Positions 880 to 59,289 of a stretch of DNA of 64,000 nt are shown here, one piece after another. Origin of the DNA: Leucoraja ocellata (Eukaryota); NCBI GenBank assembly GCA_036785375.1, contig JAWMAR010000136.1, positions 1,612,001 to 1,676,000 of the forward strand. The letters run 5' to 3'. Position 1 is the first letter of the stretch; every line of letters starts with the position of its first letter. A program made the translations under genes and the position numbers. The notes under the pieces are model-generated. The model saw nothing but the letters and a program-made list of their open reading frames with translations. It did not search any database and was not told the origin of the DNA.

Positions 880-2260
880 GGTCTATCTATCATCTATATA
901 TCATCTATATAATTAAAAGTGTCATCTTGACCACTGCCTGTCTGTGCTGTATATTGATTTTAGAAAAAAACGCTGTCATATATCGCTATGATTTTTGGCC
1001 ATCTTACTCACAGTCCTCCTCTGCTGAGCAGGTCCTGAGGATTTTTCCCATCAATGAAAAATGAAAAAGTTATGAGTGTTTAAAAAACCATGAGATACTC
1101 TCGCCTTTCAATCACCGCGATGAAGGTAATGCCCTTTCTGGGGGTGGGGGGGCAGGACTATAAAACCCCGGATGCCTGGACGTGACTCAGTCACTCTGCA
1201 AGATCGTGAGGGAGAGAGCATGACTCTCATTCTAAGCTGTGAGTCGGCATTTCTATTGCCATTGCCAACTGAACTGTGAGTCTGCATTGTACTTGCAATA
1301 AATGATTTGTTAGCCCTTAATGAAAATAAAATGAGTTGTTTGGCCTGCCTTGTGCTTGAAACTGCAATGGCAATGGAAGTGAAATGAAAATGCAATGAGT
1401 TGTTTGGCCTGCCCTGTGCTTAAACCTGCAATGGAAATGGAAATGAAATGAAAATGCAATGAGCTGTTTGGCCTGCCCTGTGCTTGAAACTGAAATGGAA
1501 ATGAAATGAAAATACAATGAGCTGTTTGCCCTGCTCTGTTCTTGAAATGGAAATAAAATGAAATGAGTTGTTTGGCCTGCTTGAAACCACTAATTTCAGT
1601 CCACAAGGCCCCTAATAGCCGAGTCACCAGCCGAGATATTCTCTCTCTCTCTCCCCCTCTCTCCCTCTCTCCCTCTCTCCCCCCCTCCCCCCCATGGATT
1701 GGTCTTTTCTCCTGTCACTCTCCGGGATGGTCCGCCACTTCCTGCGCCATCACGTCTTTACTGGAGCTGAGGATGGCCATCGGAGGTCTCCAAACGGACA
1801 ATTTTCGGACGGCCCGGAAGCGGACCGGCCCACCCCAGCCTGGCGCGGAGTCGGAGATGTCGCCAAATGGAGAGCAGGGACTCTGATCCTGGCGGAGGAG
1901 AACAACCATCAACTAGCACCCGCTGTGAATCCCCATCGCACCGCCAGCTCCCTTGCTGGCTCCTGTCCCCCTCACCCGTGATACCCCCTCTTCACCATGG
2001 CTCTTCCCTCTTTTCTCTGAGCTCTCTCCCCCCACAACCCCTCCCGCCCAAACACCCCCCCCACAACCCCAGTTCGTCCGCACCTCCCTCCCCCACCTCC
2101 CCAGCCCACACTACCCCCCCACCTTCACAAGCCCCGCCGCCTACCCACAAACCTCGCCAACAGCCCCCTCCCCGCACAACCACCCCAACTCACACCACCC
2201 CTTACCAACCCCCCCCCCCCTCCACAATCCCCCCACCGAACACCCTCTTTTACCTTTTTG
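880..2260. mobile_element. Non-autonomous Helitron-like element(s) with internal ~55-bp tandem repeat and C-rich low-complexity tract
   Basis: TCTATATAATTAAAAG-type start near 904, minisatellite at about 1320-1590, C-rich tract at 1990-2240. Boundaries approximate. Confidence 0.4.
1320..1590. repeat. Minisatellite, ~55-bp unit (gaaatgaaaatgcaatgagttgtttggcctgccctgtgcttgaaac...), about 5 copies
   Basis: Directly visible tandem copies. Confidence 0.85.
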
Positions 2261-2264
2261 TTAC

Positions 2265-2352
2265 CTATTTCGGAACAGGCAAAAATATATTATTGCCAAA
2301 ATGATGGCAGTAGTTAGGGGGACCAGGACCAGGGCATAAAGCCAAGGATAAT
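2265..2352 (-). CDS. Gene A exon 5: transmembrane (DYPWLYALVLVPLTTAIILAIIYFCLFRN)
   Basis: Acceptor ttttctttcacag in phase 1, uncharged ~23-aa hydrophobic run, donor AATAG|gtaaca in phase 2. Read-through would stop immediately (RNR*). Confidence 0.85.
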
Positions 2353-2751: not shown

Positions 2752-3069
2752 CTTTCCGTTTTGTGTTTATCGAGATACTTCTGTTTCTCCAGCCGTAGTC
2801 GTTTTTTGCCATGCACCAATACATTCCTTCATCTTTACGCTGGAAACGTATCCATTCTTTTGAACTGTTGAACCCGACTCCAGTTTGCAACGTTACATTA
2901 TGATTCTCCGTAGCATTTGTCCAGAAAACAGTGGGCACCGGATTACTATCTACGCGACAATTCAGTTCCAGGAATGAATCAGCAGCAACAAAGATGATGC
3001 TATCATTGATCAGTCGAAAAGTATCCACTGCTTTCAACCTGTATGTTATTAATAGATCTTGTGGTCCAT
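2752..3069 (-). CDS. Gene A exon 4: Ig C2/I-set domain
   Basis: Acceptor tctttaccgttag, donor AAAG|gtaaat, 318 nt, phase 1/1. YGPQ start, LNCRVDSNP..TVFW, DEGMYWCMAKNDYG. Confidence 0.9.
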
Positions 3070-4954: not shown

Positions 4955-5245
4955 ACATAATATTTAGTTTGATCGTATTTACAGCTGGCCGTCTAAAAAC
5001 GGAATGATTAATCTGACAACTGCAAACAGTTCCATTGTCTTCCACTCTTGGGACAATCTTGTAATGACTGGTGGCAACTAGTGTGCCATTCCTGTCTGTT
5101 TCAAAAGTTGGTGCAGTGATATTTGTAGAAGTGCATGTCCATGTAAAGGAGACATCCTTGTCGTACAATCCCTTGCCAGTGCAGGTTAGAGTGGATTCAT
5201 GACCAGCAACCAAAGTATCACTCCGTATATACATTTCTGGAAGAT
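4955..5245 (-). CDS. Gene A exon 3: Ig C1-like constant domain
   Basis: Acceptor tcttctctcag, donor ATGT|gtaagt, 291 nt, phase 1/1. TLTCTGKGLY..V.FTW, NGTLVATS, CSCQINH. Confidence 0.9.
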
Positions 5246-6849: not shown

Positions 6850-7197
6850 CATAAACCTGTATTCGTGTTCCTTGGCCCGTTTCATAAATTGGAGGGAAGA
6901 CATTTGGTACCTTCACCGCACAGATGTAGTCGTAAACAGAGTGACCAAACGATACATTTTCAATCATCAGTGATACTGTACAGTTGTTGAAACCACCCCA
7001 GAGGGGGTGAGGAATGCAGAGCGAGTTGTTCGTGTTGTAAGTAATATCAGCCCCTCCAGGCGATTTCCGATACCATGAAACGCGGAGCCAGGCATTCACA
7101 CTTCCATTATAACTAAACGTACAGTTTAACGTGACGGACTCGCCTCTGCACACTTTGACCAGACGTGGCTGGATCAAATTTGTGATTAGCGGAACTC
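6850..7197 (-). CDS. Gene A exon 2: IgV domain, germline VJ-type (CD28H/NKp30-like)
   Basis: Acceptor tattttccaccag, donor TATG|gtaaag, 348 nt, phase 1/1. Has B-strand Cys (TLNC), C-strand WYR, F-strand YIC and a J-like GQGTRIQV. Confidence 0.93.
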
Positions 7198-8694: not shown

Positions 8695-8743
8695 CTTGTG
8701 TTCCTGCATGCAGGAGGAAAAGCAGCTTCAGGAGGAGTTGCAT
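8695..8743 (-). CDS. Gene A exon 1: signal peptide (MQLLLKLLFLLHAGTQ-G)
   Basis: ATG at 8743, hydrophobic 16-codon leader, phase-1 end at a GC donor (CAAG|gcaagt). Joins in frame to the V exon, giving TQG/VPLITNL. Confidence 0.75.
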
Positions 8744-20626: not shown

Positions 20627-21492
20627 CCGATTCCGATTCAGATTCCGATTCAGATTCAATTTTAATTGTCATTGTCAGTGTACAGTACAGAGACAACGAA
20701 ATGCATTTAGCATCTCCCTGGAAGAGCGACATAGCAAACGATTTGAATAAATAATAATAAGTGTCCGGGGGGGGGGGGGGGGGGGGTGGTGATTGGCAGT
20801 CACCGAGGTACGTTGTTGAGTAGAGTGACAGCGGCCGGAAAGAAGCTGTTCCTCGACCTGCTGGTTCGGCAACGGAGAGACCTGTAGCGCCTCCCGGATG
20901 GTAGGAGGGTAAACAGTCCATGGTTGGGGTGAGAGCAGTCCTTGGCGATGCTGAGCACCCTCCGCAGACAGCGCTTGCTTTGGACAGACTCAATGGAGGG
21001 GAGCGAGGAACCGGTGATGCGTTGGGCAATTTTCACCACCCTCTGCAATGCCTTCCGGTCGGAGACAGAGCAGTTGCCATACCATACTGTGATGCAGTTG
21101 GTAAGGATGCTCTCGATGGTGCAGCGGTAAAAGTTCACCAGGATCTGAGGAGACAGATGGACCTTCTTCAGTCTCCTCAGGAAGAAGAGACGCTGATGAG
21201 CCTTCTTGATCATAGTAGAGGTATTGTGGGTCCAAGAGAGGTCATCGGAGATGTTGACTCCCAAGAACCTGAAGCTAGAAACACGTTCCACCTCCGTCCC
21301 GTTAATGTGGATGGGGGTGTGCGTGCCGCCTCTGGACTTCCTGAAGTCTACAATGAGCTCCTTGGTTTTCTTGGAGTTAAGGGCCAGGTTGTTGTCAGCG
21401 CACCATGCTGCTAAGTGCTGGACCTCCTCCCAGTAGGCCAGCTCATCGTTGTTGCTGATGAGGCCAATCACCGTTGTATCATCTGCATACTT
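20627..21492 (-). mobile_element. L2/Rex1-clade LINE 3' fragment with RT C-terminal ORF
   Basis: YADD(T) at about 21490 followed by open ORF 20800..21471 (LALNSKKTKELIVDFR, FLGV.I, RLFFLRRL). (GAATCT/GAATCG)n tail. Confidence 0.88.
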
Positions 21493-22285
21493 CCATCACC
21501 ACACCTTATTCTTAAGGGGCAATATCTCATAATGGGTGATGGAAATTGATCCACAGTTAAAGTCAAGAGCGTTTATTTATCATCTCAACCACTTATGAAC
21601 TAGAACAATGAAAATCTTACTTGTGGCTGCATTACAGGCACATTACATACAATAAAAAATTATTGGCCTGCAGATTTTTGTGTCACCATTTGCCCACCCA
21701 CCACTGATGCTCACATCCATCCTCATGTAGTGTATAATGGAAACACAAGAGACTGGGGATGCTGGCATCTGGAGCAATAAACAAACTGCTGGAGGAATTC
21801 AATGGGTCAGGCAGCATCTGTGGAAGCAAAAGGATGGTCGACATTGCGGGTTGAGACTTTGCTGGTGTAACGTAATGTCTTTCCTTTGCAGTCAGTCGCA
21901 AAAAGCATTATTTAGTTATTGAAGGAATACATTCCTCCATTGCATGCAATCATAATTATCTTCCTTCTGACGTTGTGGAAGGCAGCGCAAAGTTCCATGG
22001 AGAATTGAAGAATCAGAAATCAACATGTAGCCATTTGTATTGGGGAGAAGGCAAATTTAAATGGACCTTGGGCTATTCTTACTAGACAATTAATGTACTT
22101 TTTTTTAACGGAATATGTTGAAAATATGTTTATTTTGTTCAAAATTTCATATCATAGAAATATATGATAAAAGTTCACCAATTTAATGAACAAAACAACT
22201 GGCATTCACATCAATATTTTCTGTCTTAAAATCTGTTCTAAGCGTTGCCACCACACCAAGGAACATGCTTAAATACCAGCATTTA

Positions 22286-22594: not shown

Positions 22595-22676
22595 ATGTAC
22601 CAAATTAAGGGAATGTTGGCAGGAAACACTTTATTGCAACTGATGGTGTTCCTACTGGAGCAGAGATACTCAACAG
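22595..22676 (+). CDS. Gene B exon 1: probable signal peptide (MYQIKG-MLAGNTLLQLMVFLLEQRYST-G)
   Basis: In-frame ATGs at 22595 and 22613, hydrophobic core, phase-1 donor ACAG|gtcagt. Joins in frame to GVPLITELTQP. Confidence 0.6.
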
Positions 22677-25199
22677 GTCAGTGTCTTGGTTAATATCCTT
22701 CTTTTAGCTTGTGTATTGTGGAATCAGCTCATAGATTGAAATGATCACAAAAATTTAACAAAAGCCAAAGTGTTAGGTGTGTGATTTAATCAGCCTGTGG
22801 GGAGATTTACAGAAGCTGATGATGGCTCGAAGCAGCTTAGATCTCCGGAGCAGGGATCTGAGCAGCTTGCCTCTATCTTGGCTGAGGCATCATGTCAGGA
22901 CAGTTGGAGAAGGTAGGTTGCCATTTTGTCAGTTCATTGGCTGTGGCTGCATGACTAAGATAATTTGCAATGCAAAATGTCTGAATTTTAATGAAAATTT
23001 GGTGAGATTTTATTTACTTGGTTGAACCTCAGAATGAATTAAAGGTTTGAATTTAATTAAAAACATTCAGATTATCCTGCTTTGAACAGAGAAAGCTAAA
23101 ACATGAGCTGTTCAATAATTGTGGGGGGAGTTTACAGATTTTACAGATTAAATGGCAAATAATTAATTAGGGTATTAATAATTAAATTAGTGAGCTATTA
23201 TGATGCATTTCTATGGAATTAATTTTTAAAGAAAACATTATTAATTTTAAACAATTTCACTGCGATATTGAGAGCATGCAAAAACCATTCACCAATAACT
23301 GACTGCTTCAAAAACCAGTACAGGAAATGTCTAATAAGAACAGCCTAAGGTTTCTGAAGAAGGGTCTCGACCCAAAACGGTCACCCATTCCTTCTCTGCA
23401 GATGTGCTGCCTGTCTCGCTGAGTAACTCCAGCATTTTGTGTCCACCTTCGATTTAAACCAGCATCTGCAGTTCTTTCCAACACACCTAAGGTCCATTTA
23501 GCTTGCCTTCTACCCAATCCAAATGGCTGCAGGTCCATTTCTGATTCTTCAGTTCTCCACAAAGTTGTGTGCTATCTTCCACAAGGAAGAAGAAAGTGGC
23601 TTTCCCTGAAGATTGAGATTTCAGAACATCGATCAGAGGTGATGATGCAATGCGAGTTTTACTTGTTATAATGTTGAGTGAAACAACATGGAAACAAACC
23701 CTTCACTTCATCAGGTCCACCCCAATAATAAAGATCCTATTCCTAAAATGATCCTCCTGTAAACCACTTTATTTGCCACATCAGCTACCCAGTCCCCATT
23801 CTATATTCTACCATTCATCTACACCCAGGGGACAAGGTGTGGATTAATGGTGGAATCATCTACCACTGATCTATATCCTGTGACCATTTAACCAAGTAAT
23901 CCACACTAATATAAAAACAAGAAGCCCATTGAGTCAGGCTGTATCCCGTGGAAAGTGAAACGGTCAATGTTTTGGGCCTTCAACTCTTTTATTAAAACTG
24001 CAAAAAGTTGTCAATGAAACATTGCCTTTATTTTCGCTGATGCTGCCTGACCTGCTTAGTTTTTCAAGCACTTTTTATTTCAGATTTTCAAGAACTTACA
24101 TGCAAATTCCAGACTCAAGAGGCTTTTATTTGTCGTGTGAACAATTTATGAATGGAACAATTACATTTTTACTTCAACAGGCACATTAAATGCAATTAAA
24201 AAATAAATGTACCATTAATTATTAGTGATTGAACTGATAATTAAAGTGGATCATAGTCATCTAAACAAATCATCCATAATCATGCAAAGTCCGTTGTAGG
24301 AAGGAACTGTAGATGCTAGATTAAACCAAAGATAGACACAAAATGCTGGAGTAACTCAACAGGACAGGCAGCATCTATGGAGAGAAGGAATAGGTGATGT
24401 GTATTGGCTGAGAGTTTAATTAGCACCAGGGACATTCAGAACCAGAGAAGGATTCAACTCCTGCTGCAAGAGAGTACAATGATTAGATATTTTAAGTTAT
24501 AATGTACATTTTTTCAAAAAATATTATGGCATTTATTAAAAGCTACAATAAAAGTTAGAAGTGGATATTTTTAAGGGGGTGATTGACAGATTCTTGATTA
24601 AAATGTGTGTCAGGCTATATATGCAGAAGGCAGGAGAAAGAGGTTGAGGGAGAGAGATAGAGCAGCCATGATTGAATGGCAGTGGTGGGCTGAACGGCCT
24701 TAATCTACTATTACTTACGAATTTATGATGTTAGCAGTCACTTCTGAACTTGAAGTAATTATCAGCCAAGGATCATAATAGCAACATTCGGATACCTCTG
24801 ATGGTGTCACAAATGAAACAAATTCAGGCAGAATATTGCATCACAAACCAACATAACATTAAATCTGAAAAAGGTAAATATATTATTTAAGAAAAATAAT
24901 TGATACAATGGAAAGCCAATCTTCAATTCAGACCCTCCTACCCTATCTGGTTTGATCTCCCCATCATCCACACCTTTGCCCATTGTACCATCTATCACTT
25001 GGTCTGAAGAAGGGTTTCGGCCCTTCGTTGCCTATTTCCTTTGCTCCATAGATTTAAAAATAATTGATGCAATGGGAAGCCAATGTTAAACCTGCTGAGT
25101 TTCTCCTGCATTTTTGTGTACGTGCCATCTGTCACTGGCAGGACCTGCAGTTCCTTGTTTCAAACAAATACATCTGGGCTGAGTATTGAGCTCTGTATT

Positions 25200-25929
25200 T
25201 TACAAAAAAACTACAAAACATAATAGAACAGAACCAGTAATTACATGTTGGTGAGAATAAAATAGTGGGTGGGCAGGGCGGGGATGGTAGTCGGTGGGCA
25301 GGGCGGGGATGGTAGTGGGTGGGCAGGGTGTAGACGGAACGTGCCGAGCGGCAGCAGCGGGTGGTTGGACAGGACGGGAACGGGTCGAGTGGCGGCTGAG
25401 CCGGAGTGGGCAGAGGGAGGGTTGGAGAGTCGGGTTGCAGGTGGCCAAGCAGTTTGGGCGGAGTTAGAGAGACACACACACACACACACGCACGCACACG
25501 CACGCACACGCACACACACACGCTGCAAACTGGTCCAATCGTCAAGTCAACGGGATCTAAACCACACCTGACAATGAATGACATGTGGAGGAATGTGCAG
25601 ATGCTGCTTTTTATGGTTGGAGGGAGGGAGTGACTGAGGGTAGGGGAAAGGAGAGGGAGGAAAAGGTGAGAGAGGGATTGGGGAGGGGAGGAGGAGAGGG
25701 GAAAGAAGAGGGAGGGTGAAGAGGAGGGGGAAGGAGTGCCTAGAGATGAGGGGAAATGAGCCGTGCCTGCGCAGTTGGGGGCTATGCGTGAGTGGTGCAA
25801 TATTGTGTTGGGGGGACGGGATGCATTGGGGGAACGGGTGAGTGGTGGAATATTGCAATGGGGAACATGTTGTGTTGGGGGACCAGGCCTCCCATGTAAC
25901 AGGTACCAAACAGGTCCCGCTTAGTCTAG
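25200..25929 (+). mobile_element. Non-autonomous Helitron-like element with (CA/CACG)n microsatellite
   Basis: 3' end small hairpin followed by ...ttagtCTAG at about 25929. G-rich low-complexity interior. Confidence 0.5.
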
Positions 25930-26636
25930 GTATTAAAATACAACTCTCAAATATTCAGATTGCCTTATAGTTCAATATTTGCTTTGGTTACTTTTATATT
26001 CAGTTATGTAATGAATACTCTATACCTTAATTCATGCATCCCTATTCAATATTCCAAATAATTTAAAATGGCTTCATTTCAATAAATGTTCATCAAAAAT
26101 TAATAATCCAATAAAATAAAAATACACCATAAATTTAAAAAATGCACAATCATATATATTTTAAAAATAATTGATACAATGGGAAGCCAATGTTAAACTT
26201 AGGCCCTCTACTCCCATCTGCTTTCATCCGCTCATCATCTGCCCCTCCCCTGGATCCATTTGCACATTCTCTGCTCCCCATCTGGTTCTACCGGTTGCCA
26301 ACTAATCCCCATCACATTCTCCCACATCCAACTACATACTGGTTATCTTTTCCAATCCCCCCAATGTCCTGTTGCATAGACTCACCCAAAACATATAATA
26401 CCTTCAGCCTCCCGAGATGCTGCTTGACCCGCTGAGTTCTTCCAGCATTCTGTTTTTGTCTCCAGTTCAGCATTGCTTTTAGTCTAGTTTTGTTTAGTTT
26501 AGAGATACAGTTTGGAAACAGGCCCTTTGGTCCACCAGGTTCGCGCTGATCAATGATCCCCTGGTGTTGTTTAAAGTGAGCTTCCGTGGGACTATTAATG
26601 GATGTAAAAATAACAAATTTATTTATGTTCCATCAG

Positions 26637-26984
26637 GAGTTCCGTTGATCACAGAGTTGACCCAGCCACGTCTGGTCAGTGTGTGGTGGAGCCAATCCGT
26701 CACGTTAAACTGTACGTTTACCTATAATGCAAGTGTGAATGCCTGGCTCCGTGTTTCCTGGTATCGGACATCGCCTGAAGGGGCTGATGCTACTTACAAA
26801 ATGGACAACTTGCTCTGCAATCCTCACCCCCTCTGGGATGGTTTCAACCACTGTACGGTATCACTGAAGATTGAAAATGTATCGTTTGGTCACTCTGTTT
26901 ACGATTACATTTGTGAGGTGAAGTTACCAAATGTCTTCCCTCCAATTCATGAAAAGGGCCAAGGAACAAGAATACAGGTTTATG
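26637..26984 (+). CDS. Gene B exon 2: IgV domain, germline VJ-type, near-copy of the gene A V exon
   Basis: Acceptor tatgttccatcag, donor TATG|gtaaag, 348 nt. Same Cys/Trp framework and GQGTRIQV as gene A. Confidence 0.93.
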
Positions 26985-29383
26985 GTAAAGTATTTCCAAT
27001 ACTATGATGATCTCCAGTCTCTGCACTCTATACAGGTTTATGATAAAGTATTTATATAATTCTGCAGAAATGCAGTTCCTATAGTATATATATTGATTAT
27101 ACTTACATATCATACCACATTTAGATACATTGACATAGATTAATAACACACACCATGGGAAGTCAGGCTAATTAATTGTAATTCATTCCAACCAAGAAGA
27201 ATAATAAGTAATTTACCAATGTTGATTGTGGAATTTTCAGTCAAATGTAGTCTGTGCAGTTATGTAGCCAAGGCAAAGGGATCATAAAATAAAGTTGGGG
27301 AAAGGTAGAAACACTGAGCAGCATAGGTTACAACTGTGTTAAGAGAAACAATTAAAGTTTATTTTTCCACAAATTCTGCCTGAGAGCTTGCAATAGTTTT
27401 TATTTTCAACTCAGATCTCCAGCATCTGCAGTTTTAATGAAAAGAATCATAGGTTAGGTATGAAGACTATCACTGAAATTAATTTTGTGCGTCTTTCATT
27501 GTTATTATCTGCTCCAAGTGTTGGCAGGATGGATACGATGGGTTTAGAGGGTTAATGGCCAGGCGCAGGCAGGTGGTACGAGTGTAGATGGGGAATATAG
27601 GTTAGCGTGGGCAAGTTGGGCCGAAGGGCCTGTTTCCATGCTGTATGACTCTATTAGCTGGTTTTACAATTGTTAAAATATTCCAAATATTTGGATTGCC
27701 TATACTTCAATACATGTTTAGGTTAAATTTATATTCAGTAATCTACTTGATAATTTAATAGTTTGTATGTTAGATACCTATGTGCACTTACACTTAGGTT
27801 GTAAGCTGTAGGCAAATGGGTCTAGATCCTAATCCTAACATTGTGGGGAATGGGTATGGTGGGCCAAAGGGCTTATTTCCATTCTGTACAGCACTATAAC
27901 TCTATAACCACCTCCAAAATTCTCAGTCATCACTGCTTAATCGACAAAGTTTGAAAGATTATTACCATGGTCTTTACATTTTTCTCTTCTCTTTGGCGGA
28001 TTATTCTCTCTCTCCTGCAATGCACTGACCCCCTTCATCAATACTGCCACGTCCCTTCTCGTCTTCCCTTCCCCATCCTTCTGCAGTATCTTCATCCAAG
28101 AATGTTACACTTTCTTTTTGGACATATCTCTGGTTTTCTTGTCACATTCTAATCCTGGGTGTTCAGTTGGTCTTTCAGGTCCAGGTTAAATCCATATCTG
28201 ATGTTAAATGCAGCTCTGTTTAGCCTGTTCACTGCCAATTTTCTTTTCACTTTTGGCCAATGACCCAAGTATACTCGGGGGTGGCACTAAACAGGTTAAA
28301 TGTGTAACGCACTCTATCTATTCCTGCGTAACAACTCTCTATTATTTGTTCTGGAAAAATGGATCACTGTCAATTTGTTCTGCTTCCTATAGAGATCCCG
28401 ACAATTATTCCTTCCTTGACCCTAACTCTACTCCTCCTCTCCTGAACAGTTGACCGACCCAGGACGTAAAGGATCTTGGCTCTGTTTGCTTCTCCCCTCA
28501 GTACACACAACTGAATGGTGAATAGGGTAAGATGTCCTGAGTGGTCAAGGCCCGAAATGTCACCTGTACCTTCTCCAGAGATGCTGTCTGACCCACTGAG
28601 TTACTCCAGCTTTTTGTGTCTATCTTCAGTTTAAACCAGCATTTGCAGTTCTACATTTGCTACATATGCCCTGAGAGGTCTTTGGCTTAATATCGATAAT
28701 ATCAAAAACAATAGTGGGAAAAGAGCAATGCAACCAAGACCTCAACAGTGGAACAGGCGGAGGATGATGGCTGTCCTTTGTGGAGTGTCACAACGGCTGG
28801 GAAGGTGGATGAAAGCTGCAATAGGAAAGGGTCTCCGGCCATCTTGGATTCCATGCCACTGGATCCTGACCCAGATCTGTCAAGGACTGTGGGGTGGCTG
28901 TCTGTGCACCAGCCTCCCCACGTTAAACAAAGTCACGCACAGGTGTCCTCCATATAGGGAATAACATTCTGGAGACACCCATAGTCAGCCATGGCCGAAG
29001 GGGGCCTAAGCAGAGTAGGTCATGCAAACTTTGTCAACATTTATCCAAGTTAACAATTAACAATAAAACTTATAACACTCATAGGAAGGCCTTTGTGTGG
29101 GTCTACAAGACATTGGTTATCACCAGGAAAAAATAATATTTCTGATTCACACTTACTGAAGTGGAATTGTTTTTAACATTAAAGATAGACACACAATGCT
29201 GAAGTAACACAAGGGGACAGGCAGCATCTCTGGAGAGAAGGAATGGGTGATGTTTCAGGTCAAGACCCTTCTTCAGACCTTTATAGATTGTGGATAAATG
29301 CTAACTAACATGCTTTGTTCTTTTTATTTAGCATGTAAGTATATAGCACAACATATAACTTTGTTTCATGTTATTTGTTCCAG

Positions 29384-29707
29384 TCCCAGAATCTACACCA
29401 AAAATTCTAATGACTCAGGGAGATTTAATAGCAGAGAAAGCATCTGTTTTGTACTGCCATGCATGGGGATTTTATCCTGAGAACATCACAATGCAATGGC
29501 AACATCCTCACAGAACTCAAGCTACAAAATCAGATGTTATTACCACAAAACTCTCCCCTTCCAGGAACTCTGATGGCACATTTAACGCAACAAGTCAAAT
29601 TAGTTTTACTCCCACCTTGCAAGACCACAGGACAGTCTGTACTTGTCAGGTTCTTCATACAACAAGCAAAGAGTGGATAATGCAACACATAACACTCAAT
29701 GTTAATT
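29384..29707 (+). CDS. Gene B exon 3: Ig C1-set domain
   Basis: Acceptor atttgttccag (alternative in-frame AG 6 nt downstream), donor AATT|gtaagt. C1 signatures LYCHAWGFYP..I.MQW, N.DGTF..TS, CTCQVLH. Confidence 0.92.
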
Positions 29708-30634
29708 GTAAGTATGTTCATTTAATGCTCTTTCATTACAATTTACAATTACGTACCATGGATCTACCTGACGTGGGCTAAGTTCTAAGTATTTAACTTT
29801 TAGCCTTTTAAATAACTAGGTAATGTCAGAAATGGATACATCAGTAAACTGTCCTCTCACCTTGATGTTTCAGTCTCAAATTGACTGTGGTGAAGGTCTG
29901 CTTGATCTTGTAGTCTTATACAATTTGGCCAGGATGTGGTGTAAAGTGAAGTGGTTCTCTCAAAATCCAAACTAAGCACTAGGGTGTAGGCTACAAGTGA
30001 GCACGTTCCACTGGATAACAATGCCAACATTGCTTTTCATGGACATTGCTGATGATTGAGAGTTAACAGTCTATAATTAATTGACTTTTTGAAAGGGACC
30101 TGCCTGGTGATTAATCCATGCTGATAGCTATGCAATGTTGTAAATGTACCGAAACAGCATGGCTGGAGACAATGGGATAGAACATCACCCAATGAGGCAT
30201 GTTGTCTCTCCTATTGATTCCTGTGAAGATTTATAGCCCGTGGATCACATTGCTAACACTTCTAATTGGTAACAAATTTCAACAATGCTTTTCTCAATCT
30301 CAATTGTTGAGTTAGCTGGAACATAGTGGACATTTCTAGCTATCCATTTTAGCACGGGTCTAGAGGAGGGATAAAACATTTGTCAGTGATAATTACAGTG
30401 ATTTAGGAATGCAGAAAGATTGAAGAAGATGGAATTTTACCAAGTTGAATGGAGAAAGTCAAGGAAGTTAATGCATAAAACTACAGATGTTGAAATCTGA
30501 AACATGAACCAAAATGTTAGAAGAACTCACCCGGTCCAGATGAAAGAGAAACAATAATTTGATTCATTGACCCTTCCTTGGAAATGGAGAGACTGGAGAG
30601 AGTTTAGTTTAGTTTTGTTTAGAAACACAGTATG

Positions 30635-30910
30635 GAAACCGGCCCTTCGACCCACCAAGTCCGCGCCTACCAGCTATTCCCACACATTAACACTATGCTA
30701 CACACATTAGGGACAGTTTACATATATATAATTTACATTTATACCAAGCCAACCTACAAATCTGTACATCTTTGGAGCGTGGGAGGAAACGGAAGATCTC
30801 GGAGAAAACCCACGCAGGTCACGGGGAGGACGTACAAATTCAGTATAGAGCACGTTACGTCAGGATCTAACCTGGATCTCTGCCATTGTAAGGCAGCAAC
30901 ACTACTGCTG
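30635..30910 (-). mobile_element. tRNA-derived V-SINE-type element (further copies about 41270-41550 -, 54470-54620 +, 61770-62030 -)
   Basis: Shared core ggagaaaacccacgcaggtcacggggag.acgtacaaac across the copies. Confidence 0.7.
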
Positions 30911-31092
30911 CAGTAATTCTACTGGAGTGCAGGGTTTACAGTTTTCAAAGCAGAGCTGGAGGGAGGAATGAGAGGCAAGACAATGGAGATAAGTTAAGAC
31001 AGGTCAGATATTAAGGACCATGACTGTTCAAATAAGCTGTTTGTGAAAGGAACATAAGGACACATTAGGAGATCAGTATCTGAAGTTGGAAA

Positions 31093-31607
31093 ACATAGAA
31101 ACATAGAAAATAGGTGCAGGAGAAGGCCATTCGGCCCTTCGAGCCAGCACTGCCATTCAATATGATCATGGTTGATCCTCCAACTCAGGATCCTGTACCT
31201 GCCTTCTCTCCATACCCCCTGATCCCTTTAGCCACAAGGGCCACATCTAACTCCCTCTTAAATATAGCCAATGAACTGGCCTCAACTACCTTCTGTGGCA
31301 GAGAATTCCAGAGATTCACCACTCTCTGTGTGAAAAAAGTTCTTCTCATCTCGGTCCTAAAAGATTTCCCCCTTATCCTTAAACTGTGACCCCTTGTTCT
31401 GGATTTCCCCAACATCGGGAACAATCTACCTGCATCTAGCCTGTCCAACCCCTTAAGAATTTTGTAAGTTTCTATAAGATCCCCCCTCAATCTTCTAAAT
31501 TCTAGCGAGTACAAACCGAGCCTATCCAGTCTTTCTTCATATGAAAGTCCTGACATCCCAGGAATCAGTCTGGTGAACCTTCTCTGTACTCCCTCTATGG
31601 CAAGAAT
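31093..31607 (-). mobile_element. CR1 LINE 3' fragment
   Basis: ORF with VQRRFTRLIPG..GLSYEERL..LGLYSLE.RRLRGDLIE.YKIL. Confidence 0.9.
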
Positions 31608-31914
31608 GCGTAATATTAATTCCGGAAGATTGCAAAAGTACCTCAACAGATGATAAGATGTTGTTCTAGTTTATGTCGGGCATCACTACTGGGAGTGGAG
31701 CGGCCACTGATGCACAGGTCAGAATAGAAGTAGAATTGAGAAATAAATTGGGAAGTACTAGGAAGCTGGGGATCACTACTAGACCACTGAGTGCAGGTGC
31801 TCATCAAAACTACCATTATATCTGCATTTGTTTCCTCCAATGTAGTGGAGACCAAATTGAGATAATCATATCCAGTACATTACATTGGACAAAACCTCAT
31901 CTGCCTCTTAATGA

Positions 31915-32262
31915 GGAAGGTTGTTCCCGATGTTGGGGAAGTCCAGGACAAGGGGTCACAGCTTAAGGATAAGGGGGAAATCCTTTAAAACCGAGATGAG
32001 AAGAACTTTTTTCACACGGAGAGTGGTGAATCTCTGGAACTCTCTGCCACAGAGGGTAGTTGAGGCCAGTTCATTGGCTATATTTAAGAGGGAGTTAGAT
32101 GTGGCCCTTGTGGCTAAGGGGATCAGGGGGTATGGAGAGAAGGCAGGTACGGGATACTGAGTTGGATGATCAGCCATGATCATATTGAATGGCGGTGCAG
32201 GCTCGAAGGGCCGAATGGCTTACCCCTGCACCTAATTTCTATGTTTCTATGTTTCTATGTTT
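31915..32262 (+). mobile_element. CR1 LINE 3' fragment, inverted relative to the copy at 31093
   Basis: TRGHSLRIRGKSF..EMRRTFFT..VVNLWNSLP and (TTCTATGT)n tail. Confidence 0.9.
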
Positions 32263-32939
32263 AATGAGTAATTCTCTTAATTAATGAAGGGTTTTGAAAG
32301 GGAAAATTGAGAAAGGTTATTGGCCAAAAATTAACCTGCACATTGCTAAAATCTAACAGGGATGTTCAAATGACACAAACTCACACAGTACTGTATACAA
32401 TTGCACTTCTTATCTGTCAACTATTAAGCTTGCAGCCTTCCTCACCACCACTGATCCAAACAAACCATCAAATCTTGAACTTTCATGGCAACTCTGCCAG
32501 TCTGATTTGCCAGTCTGATTTGCATTTACTTCTCATGGCCTTTGTTGGTTCTGAAGCCACCCATTAGGCCAAATGGTGTAGGAAAAGTATAACCGTGAAT
32601 TCAATGTCATGCCATTGGGGTGTAAGCTACCCAAGCAGAACATTAGGTGCCGTTCTTTCACTTAGTATGTGGCCTCACTCTTGTGATGGAGGAATGTATG
32701 GGCAAAATCTGGACTCTTGTTTTATGCCAACACTGGAGTAATTGGCCAAATAACCTCCACAATTTTATAAAACATTCAGTACTGTTAATCAAAATGGTAT
32801 TTCAAATATGCAAAATCTATTTTAAATAACAGGCTAAAAATGAGGCGCAAATACAAAGGGGTGACAGGTGGTACTTTCGAAGCTTTGTTGAAGCTGCCCT
32901 TGTGACTAATGCCGTTTCTTTTTCACTGTTCTGATTGAG

Positions 32940-33260
32940 ATGGTCCACAGCCAGCAATACAATACAGGAATTCTATTGCGCATCAATTGCAGCCTCTGCT
33001 CCAAGACATCATCTATGTTGAACCTCAGTCGTATCTTCAACTAAATTGTACCACGGACAGTAATCCAATATCCACGGTCATCTGGATGAAATCGGGAGAG
33101 CAAACTGAAAGGATACAATTGACTATTGGATTAAGCCATTCAAATCTGCAGAAAGAGAAGATCGATGATTCCTTCAATGGAAAGTATATCTGCAGAGCTT
33201 ACAATTCATATGGCGCCAAAGAATCTTCTGTGAGAGTATACGTGACATCAGATTGGAAAA
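32940..33260 (+). CDS. Gene B exon 4: Ig C2/I-set domain
   Basis: Acceptor ...ctgttctgattgag, donor AAAA|gtaagt, 321 nt, phase 1/1. YGPQ, LNCTTDSNP..TVIW, GKYICRAYNSYG. Confidence 0.9.
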
Positions 33261-33526
33261 GTAAGTACCGTTATATCGGTCAAATACACAATATTTTTCT
33301 AATTTGTTAATTTATAGAGGGGTGATGTGCAAAATCAGGCTCCTGTAACAACTGAGGCTCCTGCCAAATCATTGATATTCTACACTTTCCAGTAAGCAGA
33401 ATGACAATACATGAATACAATCGAGCCATCCACACTGTACAGATAGATGCATGATAAAGGGAATAGTGTGAATATGTTTAGTGCAAGATTAAGTCCAGTA
33501 AAGTCTGATAAAAAATAGTCCAAGGG

Positions 33527-33972
33527 CACAGCACATTTGGAAGAAATGAGACTCCTCCTAATAGACATACAAGACCAATTCTTAATGAGTTGGTCCCCAT
33601 TTATTGGTTTCTTGGATTCATGTGGAGCTACAGTATCGTGAAAATTAAAAGTTTCAGGTATGGGTGAAAGCCGATCGAGAACATAAAAAATCATCTCCTT
33701 GTGGCGATTGAATAAACTCCCTCCTGCTTTCTCTCCTCACTTATTTCTTTTCTTCATTATTTTCTTTATCTGCCTGTTACTCACACACACTAGCCTATCC
33801 TTCACTCTTTACTACCTCTTTTTCCTTTTTTCTCTTCTTACTTTTCTCTTTAAAAAAAAAGGAAGTTGTACAGAGAATGTAATATGTTAACATAATTTTG
33901 GGTACCTATAGAGAGGTACCACTGTATTGTACTTACTTCTAATAAATAAAATTATATTAAAAAAAAAAAAAA
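33527..33972 (+). mobile_element. 5'-truncated L1/Tx1-type LINE insertion with poly(A) and TSD
   Basis: ORF2 C-terminus HLEEMR..F..WSPFIGFL*, AATAAA plus poly(A). (aaaa)atagtccaaggg is duplicated on both sides. Confidence 0.75.
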
Positions 33973-34333
33973 TAGTCCAAGGGTCTCCAATGAGGTAGAT
34001 GGTAGCTTAGGACTGCTACCTAGTTGTTGATAGGAAGGCTCAGTTGCCTGATTTTGCCTTTGTGAATCATACATGAAGCAGCCTGAATTGCATTCATCTA
34101 TATGACCATCCACATTTCAGAGGGTAAGCACATTGTGGATGGAATGAATTAAATTCAATGAGAACAATCGAACATTGAAATTACAAATTAACATGTCTAG
34201 CCTAACGTGTTAGTGAGAACACAATTAATGGTATTTTTTTAAATATTCTAACGTGGTCAGATACGTCAGCTATTAAAAAAGAGTATATCACAATGTCTGT
34301 GCCAAACATGATGCCAAGTTAAACTGATCTCAG

Positions 34334-34495
34334 GTACACAAAATTGCTGGAGAAACTCAGCGGGTGCAGCAGCATCTATGGAGCGAAGGAAATAGGCCAC
34401 CCCTATTTCCTTTGCTCCATAGATGCTGCTACACCCGCTGAGTTTCTCCAGCAATTTTGTGTACCTTCGATCTTCCAGCATCTGCAGTTCCCTCT
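34334..34495. repeat. Palindromic Penelope-derived repeat (similar hairpins about 6050-6190, 17260-17500, 36200-36395, 40165-40335)
   Basis: aggtacacaaaattgctggagaaactcagcgggtg... paired with its reverse complement. Confidence 0.8.
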
Positions 34496-34789
34496 TGAAC
34501 ACTTAAACTGATCTCATCTGCCTGTACAAGATCCGTATCCCTCCATCCCCTGCATATCCATGTGCCTATCCAAAAGCCTCTATCGTAGCTGCCTCCACCA
34601 CAAGCCCTGGCAGTGTGTTCCAGGCCCCCACCACCACCATCACATTGTGCCAAAAAAAACTTGCCCCTCACTTCTCCAATAAACTTTCCCCCTCTCACTT
34701 TATGCCAACATTATACAACGAGTATACGGGTCTTAACTGCAATTTGAATGGATTGTAGTAAATCAATAACATTTGGATTCTTCCAATGA

Positions 34790-35440
34790 GTCTTGATTTT
34801 CTGATGCCCAGACCACAATCTGACAGCACCTCCTTCACAATAATTGTCAATATCAGTGCCCTGCAAGGATGCTTTCTCAGACCCTTACTGTATTCCCGAT
34901 ACACTAATGACTGTACGGCCAAATTCGGTTCAAAGTCCATCCACAAATTTGCAGATGACAACAGCGTGGTGGGCTGGATCATGAACAATGATAAGAAAGG
35001 AAAGATATAGAGCACTCAGTAAAATTGTGTTAGGAAAATATGGACAGAAGTCTACACATATTGACAATAACCTCTCCCTCAATGTTCGCAAGATGAGCGA
35101 TCTAGTTATCAATGTCTGAAAGTGTGGTGCAAAACATGGCCTATCGCCATCAATAAAGTAGAAATGGTTGAGATCTTAAATTGTCTTGCCTTTAATATTA
35201 TTAATTCAATGACTCTGATAATATATTATTTAATGACTCTTACAAACTTCCACAAAAGCACCATAGAAAGCCTACTGTTGGGTTGTAACACAGCTTGGTT
35301 TGGGAGCAGTTCTACCCAAGGCTGCAAGAAATTGCAGAGAATAGTAGATGTAGCCCAGACCTTCATACAGTCCAGACTTCCCACCATTGATCCCATCTAC
35401 ACTCCACTCTGCCTCAGAAAAGCAGCCAAAATAATGTAAA
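34790..35440 (+). mobile_element. Degenerate L2/Rex1-clade LINE RT fragment (similar copies about 6420-6760, 59800-60480; upstream part about 51277-52030 -)
   Basis: QGCFL.PLLYS.YTNDC...KFADD remnant. Confidence 0.75.
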
Positions 35441-36053
35441 CTTTGGCATCCTTCTTCACAGTCCGTGACCCCAGCAATCTTGATATCATCTGCAAACTAA
35501 CTATAACCATATAACAATTACAGCACGGAAACAGGCCATCTTGACCCTTCTAGTCCGTGCCGAACACGTATTCTCCCCTAGTCCCATGTACCTGCGCTCA
35601 GACCATAACCCTCCATTCCTTTCTCGTCCATATAACTATCCAATTCCAACTATCATGGGGTTTGTTTATGAAACTGATGTGCTACAATGCTGAGAACTAT
35701 ATTCTGCACTTTGCATCTTCTCCTTTGCTTTATTTACTGTGCTTGAGTTTGATGTGATTGTATTTATGTGCAGCATATCTGATCTGGTTTGATATCATCC
35801 AAAACAAAGCTTTTCACTGGACATTGGTAAACATGGCAATAAGAGATATAACCCTAGATGGGCTGGTACAATCCTATCTCACAAATTATGGCATGGAGAA
35901 TCTACAGCAGCATTAATGAGAAATGAATTTGCAATTCATGATATAAATACTGTACTGAATCGATACGCAAGGAAGGCAATTTAACTGATATTTGCTAGCG
36001 TTCTTTTATACTGATGCAAACCATAAGAAACCCTATTTTTTGTTGTATAACAG

Positions 36054-36131
36054 GTCATTTCCCTGTCCGATTTGTAACGGTGCCCATCTTCGTGACGACT
36101 GTGATTTTGTTACTGCTCTGCTGCAGGAAAG
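36054..36131 (+). CDS. Gene B exon 5: transmembrane (SHFPVRFVTVPIFVTTVILLLLCCRK)
   Basis: Acceptor tttttgttgtataacag, donor AAAG|gtaaat, 78 nt, phase 1/1. Hydrophobic run followed by CC-RK. Confidence 0.82.
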
Positions 36132-37214
36132 GTAAATTAACTGGTAAACAAACTAATGTGAAGCAGAAGTTTTAATAACTGTTAACATTCACTACTTAGG
36201 TAGATACAAAATGCTGGAGTAACTTGGCGGGACAGGCAGCATCTCTGGAGAGAATGAATGGGTAACATTTCAGGTCGAGACCCTTCTTCAGACTGTTCAT
36301 CAACATTTTATGTCTCCAGAGATGCTGTCTGTCCCGCTGAGCTACTCCAGTATTTTGTGTGTACCTTCGATTTAAATCAGCATCTGCAGTTATTTCATAA
36401 CATTCCCTGCTTGATGTGATTATTTATTTAAGTAAAATAATTTGGAATGACAAAATAATTCAAGGTACGATACCTATGGAATAAAGTATTCCTACGATGG
36501 TGAGCACCATTATTATAGTTGAATAGAGTGTGGCAACATGCAATAATCAGAGAGATGGCCCTACAAAAATGATGGATGAGCATTCTACTCAGTGTAGAAC
36601 AGTTGTCAAATTAAGTGATAATTTGAAAGGTTGATGGTAAAATTAAATATTAATCATGCAGAAAGTTGCAGATAATGGGCTGATTTTTGAAATGCAGAGA
36701 TTTAAACTAGAAAATTATGATTGAAAGAAGGAAATTGAAATCAACAAGCTGATCTTGCATGACATTGAAAAGTCACTAAGAGGAAGGATTCTTAAATGGA
36801 ATTTCCCTGGTGAAAATTTGGAACAATCAGCAAGGTTATACAAATAGCAGCAGTCAGCAGGATTGTGAAGGTGAAGGATTCTGGGGTGTTATTGCATCAC
36901 TGTAAACAAAAAGCACCACACATGTACTTGTCCAAATGCATTTTATACCAACATTTCAAAAACATTTGAACAGGTAAAGAGGTTGGAAATGTTTAGAGGA
37001 ATCTGGGCCAGGCAATTGGGACTACCTTGATGGGACATCTTGGTCAGCATTGATAGGTCGGGCTGAAGAGCCTGTTTCCATGTTTTACGACTATCAATAA
37101 ATGTGTCAAAGCATTGAATAAAACAAATGTTCTATATTATGAAAATCAGATTCCAGATGAAAAAAATGACGTATGGGAGAATTTCCCTAATAATATGTCC
37201 TTTTTATTGTATAG

Positions 37215-37239
37215 ATCGGGACTGCTTGCGCAAATGGAG
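37215..37239 (+). CDS. Gene B exon 6: short cytoplasmic exon (DRDCLRKW)
   Basis: Acceptor tttttattgtatag, strong donor GAG|gtaagc, open in phase 1 to 2. Confidence 0.55.
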
Positions 37240-39469
37240 GTAAGCCTTAAAATAGCATTTTATCCTTTTTATATAAATGATGGATGAACAATTTTTCTCC
37301 AATAATATGCATTAAGTAGTAAGCAAGTTTTCAACAGCAAGGAGGTAATCTGCAATGTGGATTTGAGGAACTCAGACTCAGGGTACAGTGAAAAGCTAAC
37401 TAGTGAGCAGAAAGACAATACATGATTACTATCAAGCCATCCACCGTGTATAGATACACAATAAGGGGAATAAGGTTTAGTGTAAGACAAAATGTTTTTA
37501 ACAGCAGGTTTTGGCTGAACCACAGATGAAAGAAGCCCATGGGGCTGGACAGAGAACATTGCAAAAGCCCCATCTGAAAGTAAAAAAGATTCAGATGAGA
37601 GATTTGTCAGATCACGGGCTAAGGTCAGCAGCGGCAGGTGCAAATAGCGAGTAATTATTTTACGGTCTTGATGATGGACAGCAGATGGAATTCAGAAAAT
37701 GTACCAAAAGTTGCAAACATTCACATTCACACAAGCTGCACATCACACAAGAACACATACAGGCCATTGGTCCCTTGCACCAGTTCAACTCTTCAATACG
37801 ATCATTGACTTGATCTTTTATCTCAATACAACTTTCCTGCATATCCCTTATTATCCCCAAAATCTCCCCATCTCTCTCTCAACTGGCTGAGCCTCCACCC
37901 AGGTAAGAATTCCAAAGACCTCTATCCTCAAGGTGAAGGAATTTCTTCTCCTTCCTGTCCAGACAGGTGACTTCTTTATTGTAGTTCAGAACATGCTCGT
38001 CTTGGGAAACATCATCCTCACTTTCCCATGATAATAACTTTTAATTTCTCAATGCAATCACAATGTACTACATATAATATAATAGGTATAGGCCCAGTCT
38101 GCTTAATGTCTCCTCATGACAATGCCACCATTCCATGAATCAATTACTCTCCCTTCATCACGCAAACCCTTTCTTGGATTGGGAAACCAGACCAGTACAT
38201 AATATTTCAGATGCAGTCCCACCAGACTCGTATGCAATTGGAACCAAATGTGTCTAATCTGGTTGTACTCAGATTCCCTTGCAATTAAAGCATTTTGTAA
38301 TTGCATTTAACTTCCGATGTTTCATTTATATACACATCCGGGTCATGCTGAGAAAACTGGAGGTAAACTGGGAGTAACATGGCCAGAAGTGCATAGCAGA
38401 TAAATAGAATGATAAAATGGAGGTTAACTGGATATCTTCACAGTGTCCAAAATTGATCCTGAGGAATCACTTGAAAGAAGTTTCAGAAGATAAATCATAG
38501 AATATGGGCTTGCCTTTGTCATTCTTTATAGTTGAAAATGCATTAAACTTTGGGTAGAATTTGCTTGTACTGATGTTCAAATTGGTAAATAACCTAAAAA
38601 AGTAAATGGATTGGGTGGAGTGACGGAGTGGGTTGTGTTTGAGGAAGAAGCTGAGAATAATCGCTCTGGATTTATATTCCTGGGTGGTTCTTAATTGAGA
38701 ATCACAGAATAATTTTGGAACTTATTCCTCACAACTTTGCTATTTTTCTTTCTCATTAGGAACTCAAAGCAACACAGGAACCAAAGCCGATTGGCCAAAA
38801 GTGACTCTTCGGAAAATGTTAACAGCCAAAAAGAGATCATAATTATTTCTGAATTCTGAGCACATGATAGTTTTACAGAGGCCAGTTGGATCTTTCTGCT
38901 AAGCTCTCTTGTAGAAACCCAATTTCCCGGTGTATCCTTGAAAAAAGTCTGTATACCTTGAGGAACAAGAGGATTTCTCTTTACACTTCCATCCCCCACC
39001 AGGTCTCATGGCCCTCCACTTTTTCCTTGAACAGAGCCCAATCCATTTCCCCTCCACTAACATTCCTCTCCACCTGGTAGAATCTTTCCATTCTTAATTA
39101 CATCTTTTTTGAATCCTTGCACTTTCTTCAAGTTAAATTTGTCGCCATGTGCTCCACCAATGCCTGCCCTTTTGTTGGTTACATCGAACAGTCTTTGTTC
39201 TCTGGCACCCCAACTCTTTCTCGGCAATCTGAGAATTGTCCTCACCCAAAATGTTGCTTATCCATCTTCTCCAGTGATGATGCCTGACCTGTTGGGGTGC
39301 TCCAACACTTTGTGTATTTTTGTTTAACAAGTGGATTTCATTTTCTTTACTAAATGTAACTTATCCATTCACCCCAATCTATTGGTCCCCCACAAATAAA
39401 TAATGTTCTCATGAGCTTGTGCTCTCAGCTGAAAGGTAATAAAGCAATGGCTTATTCTTCATGGATAGC

Positions 39470-40560
39470 TTTAGCATGGTGGCTCCAGCGAGCGCCGCTT
39501 TTGCACCCTCGAGGCACTGGAAAAGGGGGCACATGATTCTGGCCGCCGCCGGCATGAAACGGTGATAGAAGTTTACCATACCGACAAACTCCTATAGGCC
39601 TTTCACAGTTGGCAGCCTGGGGAACTGCCGGATGGCCTCCACGTTAGAGGGCAATGGGGTGGCGCCCTGCGAGGTGATGTTGTGGCCCAGGAATGAAATC
39701 ATGCAGAGTCCAAACTGGCACTTGGCGGGATGACGGAGTCGCGGAGCCGCTGGAAAAGCGTCCGCAGGTGTGCGAGTTGCTCCTGTTCGGAGCGGTTCAC
39801 GACCAGGATGTCATCGAGGTAAATGTAGATAAAGTTCAATCCCTGACCGACTATGTCCATTAGGCGCTGGAACGCCTGAGCTTCGTTCTTCAAACCGAAG
39901 GGCATGCGGAGCCACTCAAACAGCCTGAACGGGGTGATGGTGGCAGTTTTGGGCACGTCTACCGGGCGCACAGGGATCTGGTGATAACACCGGACCAGGT
40001 CCACCTTGGAGAAAAAGATGGTGCCCTCCAGATGGGCCGAAAAGTCCTGTCGATGTGGGACTTGGTAGCAGTCCACGGTTGTAATGGCGTTCAGGCGCCT
40101 GTGATCCCCGCGCCTGCAATTACATGCGTATGCACAGCCGTCTGGAGCGTGTGACATCATTTGAAGATGGACACAAAGCTGGAGTAACTCAGCTGGACCA
40201 GCAGCATCTCTGGAAAGAAGCAATGGGTGATGTTTCAGGTCGAGACTCTTCTTCAGTCTGAAAAGAAGGGTCTTGACCCGAAACGTCACCCATTGCTTCT
40301 CTCCAGAGATGCTGTCAGTCCCGCTGAGTTACTCCTTCATTTTCTGTCCATCTCCATTTTTCTTGGCCCCGCTCTGGGAGTAGAAGTGGGTGCGGATCCG
40401 GACCGCAATAGCCGTGAGCCCCAGGCTGAGTTCGGCGATCATTTGCCTGCTTCTGCTGCTGTTGAAGGTGAGATGTTGCGTCACATCAGGGTCTTGGGCC
40501 TGTCCCACTTTGGCCTTCAGTTCCACGACAGGCCGTTGGCGCGCGAAGATTTCGTTCACT
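39470..40560 (-). mobile_element. Gypsy/Ty3 LTR retrotransposon pol fragment interrupted by a Penelope-derived palindrome
   Basis: D.RRLNA.T..D.Y..P, FSKVDL...YHQIPV, KTA.ITPF.LFE..RMPFGLKN...FQR, YLDDILV. Confidence 0.85.
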
Positions 40561-51089: not shown

Positions 51090-51272
51090 TCTACGGATGC
51101 CGTTTGGGTTACAGAACGCAGGGCAATCGTTCCAGCGTTACATGGACCACGTACTCTCCGGCCTCGATTCAGTCTACGCATACATCAATGACATGTTGGT
51201 AGCGAGCTCCAGCAAAGAAGAACACAAGAAACACCTCGGATTATTGTTTCGGCGTCTCAAACTTGAACATTG
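51090..51272 (+). mobile_element. Short Gypsy RT fragment
   Basis: RMPFGLQNAGQSFQRYMD.VL.GL..VYAYINDMLVAS. Confidence 0.8.
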
Positions 51273-59222: not shown

Positions 59223-59289
59223 TCTCAGAATTTACTTCCAGTATGAATGTTAATAAGATAACGTGGATGATACTTGGTAATCCACCCAT
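59223..59289 (-). CDS. Gene C coding exon 1: signal peptide (MGGLPSIIHVILLTFILEVNSE)
   Basis: Exon begins at 59301 after ttcctttctttgcag. ATG at 59289, hydrophobic core, phase-1 donor GAGA|gtaagt. Confidence 0.82.

Follow-up and report, generated by a model that had tools for sequence, protein, structure and literature searches.

What kind of receptor is encoded by a skate gene whose immunoglobulin (Ig) variable (V) exon already ends in a joining (J)-like strand? The question is raised by gene B, located in a 64,000-nucleotide stretch of the Leucoraja ocellata genome (assembly GCA_036785375.1, contig JAWMAR010000136.1, positions 1,612,001 to 1,676,000; the whole stretch is called the window and the contig C136). 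Gene B is oriented head-to-head with two minus-strand paralogues, gene A within the window and gene A′ upstream of it. Gene A′ carries immunoreceptor tyrosine-based switch and inhibitory motifs (ITSM, ITIM) in its tail. We consider it likely that gene B is the activating and A′ the inhibitory partner of an apparently undescribed family of paired receptors as old as the jawed vertebrates. An earlier description of the family was not found in the literature searched, and a mention in Ohta 2019, Fu 2019, Flajnik 2023, Cao and Crocker 2011 or their supplements is possible.

The exons of gene B are listed in Table 1. Its predicted product is probably a type I membrane protein consisting of a germline VJ-type V domain, a C1 domain (D2), an I/C2 domain (D3), a transmembrane (TM) segment with an arginine, and a short tail devoid of tyrosine. 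The stretch covered by the preliminary description ended at position 36131 and excluded both tail exons. The V exon encodes the cysteines of the B-F disulfide, a second conserved cysteine pair, an xFPP FG loop and a GQGT G strand, and its structure was predicted with a predicted local distance difference test score of 89. Canonical B-F cysteines, the second cysteine pair and GxG were present in 31 of 31 aligned V domains of the family.

A joined, non-rearranging V exon had been proposed previously, and the present data agree with this: GQGTRIQVY lies inside the V exon, and no strict recombination signal sequence was detected on either strand of the window. The three V exons had one, one and two relaxed signals no more than 300 bp away, which is the background level (58 per 64 kb). 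In RNA run X15, four of five V-exon reads continued from the V end straight into the A-type D2 exon. A-type genes are thus transcribed and spliced without a J segment. The first RNA read mapping was dominated by repeats.

Domain types were determined by Pfam scores per exon, by sequence and profile searches of the PDB, and by fold searches with Foldseek and VIA. The V exon of gene B matched V-set with 30.6 bits. For D2, hidden Markov models of C1-set outscored those of C2-set_2 both in gene B (48.6 vs 20.0 bits) and in gene A (30.5 vs 18.2), as expected from the preliminary description. D3 of gene B matched I-set (35.3 bits) and Ig_3 (34.9), which upholds its earlier assignment to the I/C2 type, and D3 of genes A and B had no C1-set match in Pfam. 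D2 of 14 aligned members matched C1-set in all 14 cases and C2-set_2 likewise in all 14. In the coelacanth C2-set_2 outscored C1-set, and D2 of the chimaera protein had no C1-set match. The FG loop contains PP in most elasmobranch members and only IP in most bony-fish members; PPP was found in none.

The best PDB sequence matches were Ig lambda chains and T-cell receptor (TCR) V-alpha for V and V-D2, and Ig C1 domains for D2, with UrIg2 ranking first for the gene B exon. Across D2-D3 as one stretch, MAG and Siglec-8 were the best chains. In PDB profile searches involving multi-domain chains, repeats inflate the scores, and the abundance of antibodies biases the matches. Foldseek returned antibody and TCR V domains for the V model (E ~1e-6), and VIA returned IL18R-beta (Z 13.0), TCR (11.8) and PD-1 (11.3). 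Judged by this model, V fold searches do not discriminate between families, as TCR is not separated from PD-1 or I-set domains. For D2, Foldseek matches were mostly Ig, major histocompatibility complex (MHC) and beta-2-microglobulin C1 domains. With VIA, Necl-4 (Z 11.1, root mean square deviation 2.6, 98 aligned) shared the top with MHC C1 domains, and the rows of Necl-4, MHC, CD22, SIRP and nectin were all within 1.3 Z. Three V-profile matches were nearly tied, namely a CD28-like protein of paddlefish that has the CD28X motifs (probability 97.9, E 3e-13), a V-C1 protein of a turtle (97.3) and one of a skate (96.2), and no orthology is therefore claimed for V.

Two-domain V-C1 proteins with EIPPP or NKp30-like FG loops were also encountered (P0146 and P0118, skate and sawfish; P0165, turtle); their automatic names are 'uncharacterized', 'Ig kappa-like' and 'tapasin-related'. 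On contig C424, at least nine C1-set exons with 26-37% identity to gene B D2 form a cluster that possibly represents another multigene family of VJ-C1 or SIRP-like type.

Non-rearranging VJ receptors are listed by comparative immunologists as candidate targets of the RAG transposon. A relic of the pre-RAG antigen-receptor precursor, i.e., a germline VJ-C1 gene like UrIg, UrIg2 and PRARP, would agree with the Ig and TCR matches of V and D2, with the single VJ exon and its invariant GxG, and with an age at least that of the jawed vertebrates. In UrIg and UrIg2 of elasmobranchs, too, a C1 domain follows a single VJ exon that does not rearrange. However, the available text of PMC12227049 describes UrIg2 as elasmobranch-only, with nine C1 domains and located in an antigen-receptor complex, whereas the skate family has a single C1 domain, an I/C2 domain, signalling tails including an ITIM tail, and bony-fish members. 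Moreover, the F/W that precedes GxG in the J consensus is absent, and the bias of the PDB matches and the lack of discrimination in the fold searches also count against a relic, which we judge unlikely.

The idea of a receptor pair rests on the cytoplasmic and TM segments and on binding domains that have stayed alike. The tail of A′ contains the motifs TIYAVV, VSYADI and SEYSVV, and full-tailed chondrichthyan A types also have three tyrosine motifs. Long-tail exons matched once in the region, behind A′, and A′ alone has this tail there. Gene A is tailless owing to an in-frame stop directly behind the TM segment, present on both C136 and contig C4410. An Amblyraja gene model ends at about the same place, and a RefSeq protein of Leucoraja erinacea is almost identical to the gene A product. 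When the 3.4-Gb genome was searched with the V exon, five of the ten matches listed were strong, three on C136 and two on C4410. The latter contig (51.4 kb) mirrors the region of A and A′ at 97-99% identity and is probably the second haplotype.

A TM arginine is present in all five B-clade proteins that have a TM segment, and rays, sharks and paddlefish have all retained this residue and the gene B-type tail. The pairing of long-tailed with charged-TM members recurs in coelacanth (P0175/P0054; ectodomains 97-98% identical), in gar (P0172/P0171, with Lys; D2-D3 99% identical) and in paddlefish (P0084/P0177). Two zeta-family adaptor genes of the skate genome scored above the Pfam cut-off.

Gene B and its paralogues A and A′ are 77-79% identical in their V exons vs 31-32% in D2-D3. 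In windows of 40 bp, identity of B and A was 0.78-0.97 inside the homogenised tract (Table 1) vs 0.38-0.62 outside. In the D2-D3 tree (35 rows), skate B formed a group (99/96) with the B proteins of stingray, sawshark and two orectolobiform (bamboo/epaulette) sharks; paddlefish B joined them (96/90), and all A types stood apart. In the V tree (35 rows), by contrast, skate B fell among the skate A types (98/97). Approximately unbiased (AU) tests were performed with 19 chondrichthyan-plus-paddlefish-B rows holding both V and D2-D3, with groups chosen after the first trees were seen. A single B clade was rejected for V (p 1.1e-7), also without paddlefish (skate and sawshark B; p 2.9e-5), and a skate A+B clade was rejected for D2-D3 (p 5.2e-5). 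This conflict bears the mark of V-exon gene conversion between members of a receptor pair. In the available part of PMC13358205, V-set gene conversion that keeps the binding domains alike is described as part of paired-receptor logic for the Siglec-5/14 and 11/16 partners and for PILR. Between the A′ copies on C136 and C4410, non-synonymous and synonymous differences numbered 10:1 in V vs 3:4 in D2-D3 (Fisher p 0.047).

Several observations weigh against a functional receptor pair shaped by gene conversion. The D3 acceptor of gene B is GAG, a rare type, and a nearly invariant Gly of its V domain is changed. In eight run mappings of very low depth, the V-exon reads that could be typed by a diagnostic base or by splicing belonged to the A type, and no read was assignable to gene B. 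These three points would fit a gene B that is a decoy or decaying copy, with A′ as the only signalling member, and gene A demonstrates that tailless copies arise at the locus. Yet the seven gene B exons are all open, D2-D3 are 65% identical to stingray B and 56% to sawshark B, and the conservation of the TM arginine and tail described above likewise speaks against decay, which appears improbable to us. Further points concern the family as a whole. Paddlefish B is a long branch in trees and AU tests, and the PP motif is missing from the V domains of chimaera and many bony fish. The contrast between V and D2-D3 in the ratio of non-synonymous to synonymous rates was not significant for A vs A′ (p 0.19). 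Partners in sawshark (V 53% vs D2-D3 37%) and paddlefish (38% vs 29%) show only a modest excess of V identity, so conversion of the V exon is regarded as episodic. Coelacanth and gar partners, by comparison, agree at 97-99% throughout the ectodomain.

A types were found in rays, sharks and chimaera, and B types in stingray and sawshark. A V profile searched against 1.84 billion representatives gave 212 matches, the best 150 of which were listed. In total, 177 proteins were gathered, and 42 of those under 620 aa carry D2 and D3. The V-profile search added 13 further D2+D3 representatives, 12 from bony fish or coelacanth and one from a shark, all named; the 12 come from coelacanth, paddlefish, gar, bowfin, the elopomorphs (eels/tarpon) Albula, Megalops and Conger, and the osteoglossomorphs (bonytongues) Scleropages and Brienomyrus. 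The suggestion of a lineage-specific family was thus not sustained, as chimaera, sharks, rays and all these bony-fish groups share the three domains. No tetrapod or clupeocephalan teleost was among the 13 new representatives; with 150 of 212 matches listed, no lineage loss is deduced from this. In the epaulette shark, A and B share one 57-Mb record, and the accessions of the coelacanth pair are consecutive. Automatic RefSeq names of family members are Siglec-6/8/10/12/13/14 or MAG-like, and also CADM and VCAM. The epaulette shark protein P0012 has two tandem V domains, the first without F-strand Cys. In P0022 (sawshark), an A-type ectodomain is joined to an Arg-containing TM segment, which points to a recombinant activating gene or else to an error of the gene model.

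As the preliminary description had anticipated, neither SIRP (V-C1-C1) nor NKp30/CD28H (single V) nor true Siglecs matched over the full length. Its statement that the domain combination fits no Siglec is not supported: according to the available text on their crystal structures, CD22 d1-d3 (PMC5624926) and MAG Ig1-3 (PMC5150538) are V-C1-C2, and nectins model alike. The V-C1-C2 layout is not unique, as CD22 and MAG have it; the VJ-type V upon it is the unusual part.

A divergent Siglec that binds sialic acid or has lost this ability would share with CD22 and MAG the N-terminal layout, with MAG and Siglec-8 the similarity of D2-D3, and with Siglecs generally an ITIM/ITSM tail or a charged TM segment. 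The Siglec/MAG-like RefSeq names are in line with it, as is the ITIM with a distal xEYSxV, which we take to resemble CD33-related tails. However, 0 of 31 V domains have an Arg at the position after the F-strand Cys, where we presume the essential sialic-acid Arg to lie, while the canonical B-F disulfide and the GxG strand are kept. The residue in question is R118 in MAG and R120 in CD22 in the available portions of PMC5150538 and PMC5624926, respectively; the former also reports the MAG inter-domain disulfide C37-C165. No additional conserved Cys that could form such a D1-D2 bond was found in the family, either ahead of the B-strand Cys in V or behind the one in D2. The V exons have no Pfam Ig_CD22 match, and 0 of 12 genomic Ig_CD22 matches are on C136. 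A Siglec of either kind is thus very unlikely.

SIRPs resemble the skate family in the joined VJ-type V and C1 domains and in clustered paired inhibitory and charged-TM members, and SIRP C1 was among the D2 matches. In contrast to SIRP, the third domain of the skate family is I/C2 instead of C1, the V domain is marked by a short C'-D region and an additional Cys pair, and the TM Arg is at the outer end of the helix. SIRP is named among joined-VJ receptors in the available part of PMC11599192, which also gives a single extracellular V for the CD28 family; the skate gene, in contrast, has three Ig exons. CD28-family members have a proline motif in their CDR3 loop, often together with GxG, and the V domains of CD28X, CD28H, CTLA4 and NKp30/PRARP may resemble the skate family in their proline FG loop and GxG at CTLA4-like spacing.

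An adhesion molecule of the nectin/CADM type, which would be marked by trans adhesion and a PDZ/afadin-binding tail, has a V-C1-C2/I ectodomain too. Structure-atlas neighbours include nectin-3/4 and CADM1, the D2 fold search was topped by Necl-4, and the locus is, we assume, in a nectin/JAM-type paralogon. The skate family differs by its tails, which are ITIM/ITSM or short, its charged-TM partners, its GxG G strand and its fast, homogenised V exon, so that this alternative is highly improbable. By these sequence features the family is best read as standing outside Siglecs, SIRPs, the CD28 family and UrIg-type molecules, yet it would work like SIRP and Siglec pairs.

On this reading of paired receptors, the V domain of A′ would bind a ligand, and its tail motifs TIYAVV, VSYADI and SEYSVV would be phosphorylated and attract SHP-1/2. 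Gene B would recognise the same ligand or a mimicked one, and its signal would pass through an adaptor of CD3zeta/FcRgamma type that bears an Asp and an immunoreceptor tyrosine-based activation motif. Tailless gene A might act as decoy or competitor. Repeated V-exon conversion would keep the binding ends alike, while bodies and tails would have been separate since before the shark-ray split. The ligand may well be a protein touched by the proline-rich FG loop, as in V domains of the CD28 family and NKp30, rather than sialic acid.

The surroundings of the cluster were inspected with a crude exon finder, which misses genes, over 1.46 Mb of the 6.25-Mb contig C136. The order of neighbours is GT43, GH35, LIM2, CBS-like, cluster, single-V gene, otoancorin-like and OPCML-like IgLON (Table 1). 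We take the GT43 gene to be B3GAT1-like and the GH35 gene GLB1L-like, and the CBS-like and otoancorin/stereocilin-like names are likewise our assumption. Presumably, human 11q25 holds B3GAT1, GLB1L2/3 and OPCML, and human 19q13.4 holds LIM2 and IGLON5 within the CD33-related Siglec cluster. The two human regions are paralogous to each other and are not known as major MHC paralogons. The neighbours B3GAT, GLB1L, LIM2 and IgLON point to the 11q25/19q13 paralogon rather than to MHC. LIM2 is the only 19q13 marker found, as the ETF-family match falls on another contig, C61. None of the neighbours recognised in the 1.46 Mb is an MHC-paralogon or TCR/IgH marker, so that the link to MHC paralogons that had been raised is not supported; this may also tell against a pre-RAG relic. 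The flanking LIM2 and IgLON genes, presumably arranged as at the human CD33-related cluster, favour a divergent Siglec.

The single-V gene is a separate Ig-superfamily gene on the minus strand (window positions 56313-56618 and ~59223-59301). Its leader exon is hydrophobic, and its one V-like exon scores 23.5 bits for V-set, contains a YWQK motif and lacks the F-strand Cys; no additional exon of it was found. It is present as a single copy in the genome and has only weak PDB matches (CADM/CRTAM, E ~0.05). Fragments of long interspersed element and long terminal repeat retroelements lie at window positions 20800-21495, 31185-32160, 39699-40328 and 51177-52020, and introns and spacers contain many copies of short interspersed elements.

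Table 1. Features of the receptor cluster and its neighbours (window positions, unless C136 is indicated)
Feature	Position	Strand	Description
Gene B	22595-38859	+	seven phase-compatible exons, all open, 425 aa; canonical GT donors
Gene B leader exon	22595..22676	+	phase 1; ATG and hydrophobic stretch, GT donor
Gene B V exon	26637..26984	+	ends ...GQGTRIQVY; Pfam V-set
Gene B D2 exon	29384..29707	+	C1-set
Gene B D3 exon	32940..33260	+	I/C2-type; motifs YGP...DSNP...YxCxAxNxYG; exon join
Gene B TM exon	36054..36131	+	Arg near outer end
Gene B tail exon 1 (predicted)	37215..37239	+	splice sites; resembles tails of P0024/P0025
Gene B last exon	38760..38859	+	tyrosine-free tail, stop; 42% identity to stingray P0024 tail
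Homogenised tract common to genes B and A	26591..27043		V exon with ~50 bp of intron on either side; 87% by blastn across 453 bp
Gene A leader exon	8695..8743	-	GC donor; equals P0002 N-terminus
Gene A V exon	6850..7197	-	79% aa / 89% nt identical to gene B V
Gene A D2 exon	4955..5245	-	C1-set; 26% identical to gene B D2; spliced reads
Gene A D3 exon	2752..3069	-	34% identical to gene B D3
Gene A TM exon	2254..2352	-	uncharged; in-frame stop just after TM
Gene A′	C136 ~1570376-1601300	-	upstream of window; ITSM/ITIM tail
GT43 glucuronyltransferase gene	C136 1290120-1306112		left neighbour
GH35 beta-galactosidase gene	C136 1346561-1358301		left neighbour
LIM2 gene	C136 1467969-1470284		left neighbour; only LIM2 match of the genome
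CBS-like PALP enzyme gene	C136 1537488-1555060		left neighbour
Otoancorin/stereocilin-like gene	C136 ~1738000-1825000	-	right neighbour; weak Pfam match
IgLON exon	C136 2142348-2142473	-	right neighbour; closest to OPCML

A bolder proposal is that the family is a surviving link between two Ig-superfamily lines, uniting a VJ-C1 head of antigen-receptor type with a C2 body of Siglec/nectin type and an ITIM/ITSM tail. Placed between LIM2 and an IgLON gene on the paralogon that is sister to that of the human CD33-Siglec cluster, it would be the ohnologue of this cluster. We hold this to be rather doubtful; if true, Siglecs and rearranging receptors would share a single ancestor, a VJ-C1-C2 paired receptor present in the earliest jawed vertebrates.

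To our knowledge, paired receptors of cartilaginous fish are poorly known. Beyond the preliminary description, the present analysis adds the probable paired inhibitory/activating organisation and the homogenisation of V exons. It also adds a jawed-vertebrate-old family with a distinct VJ-C1-I/C2 layout, which is misnamed Siglec, MAG, CADM or VCAM in RefSeq. The split into activating and inhibitory members would have been kept since before the divergence of sharks and rays, together with exon-limited gene conversion, and the skate, gar and eel genes provide concrete candidates for tests of ligands and of function in natural killer and myeloid cells.

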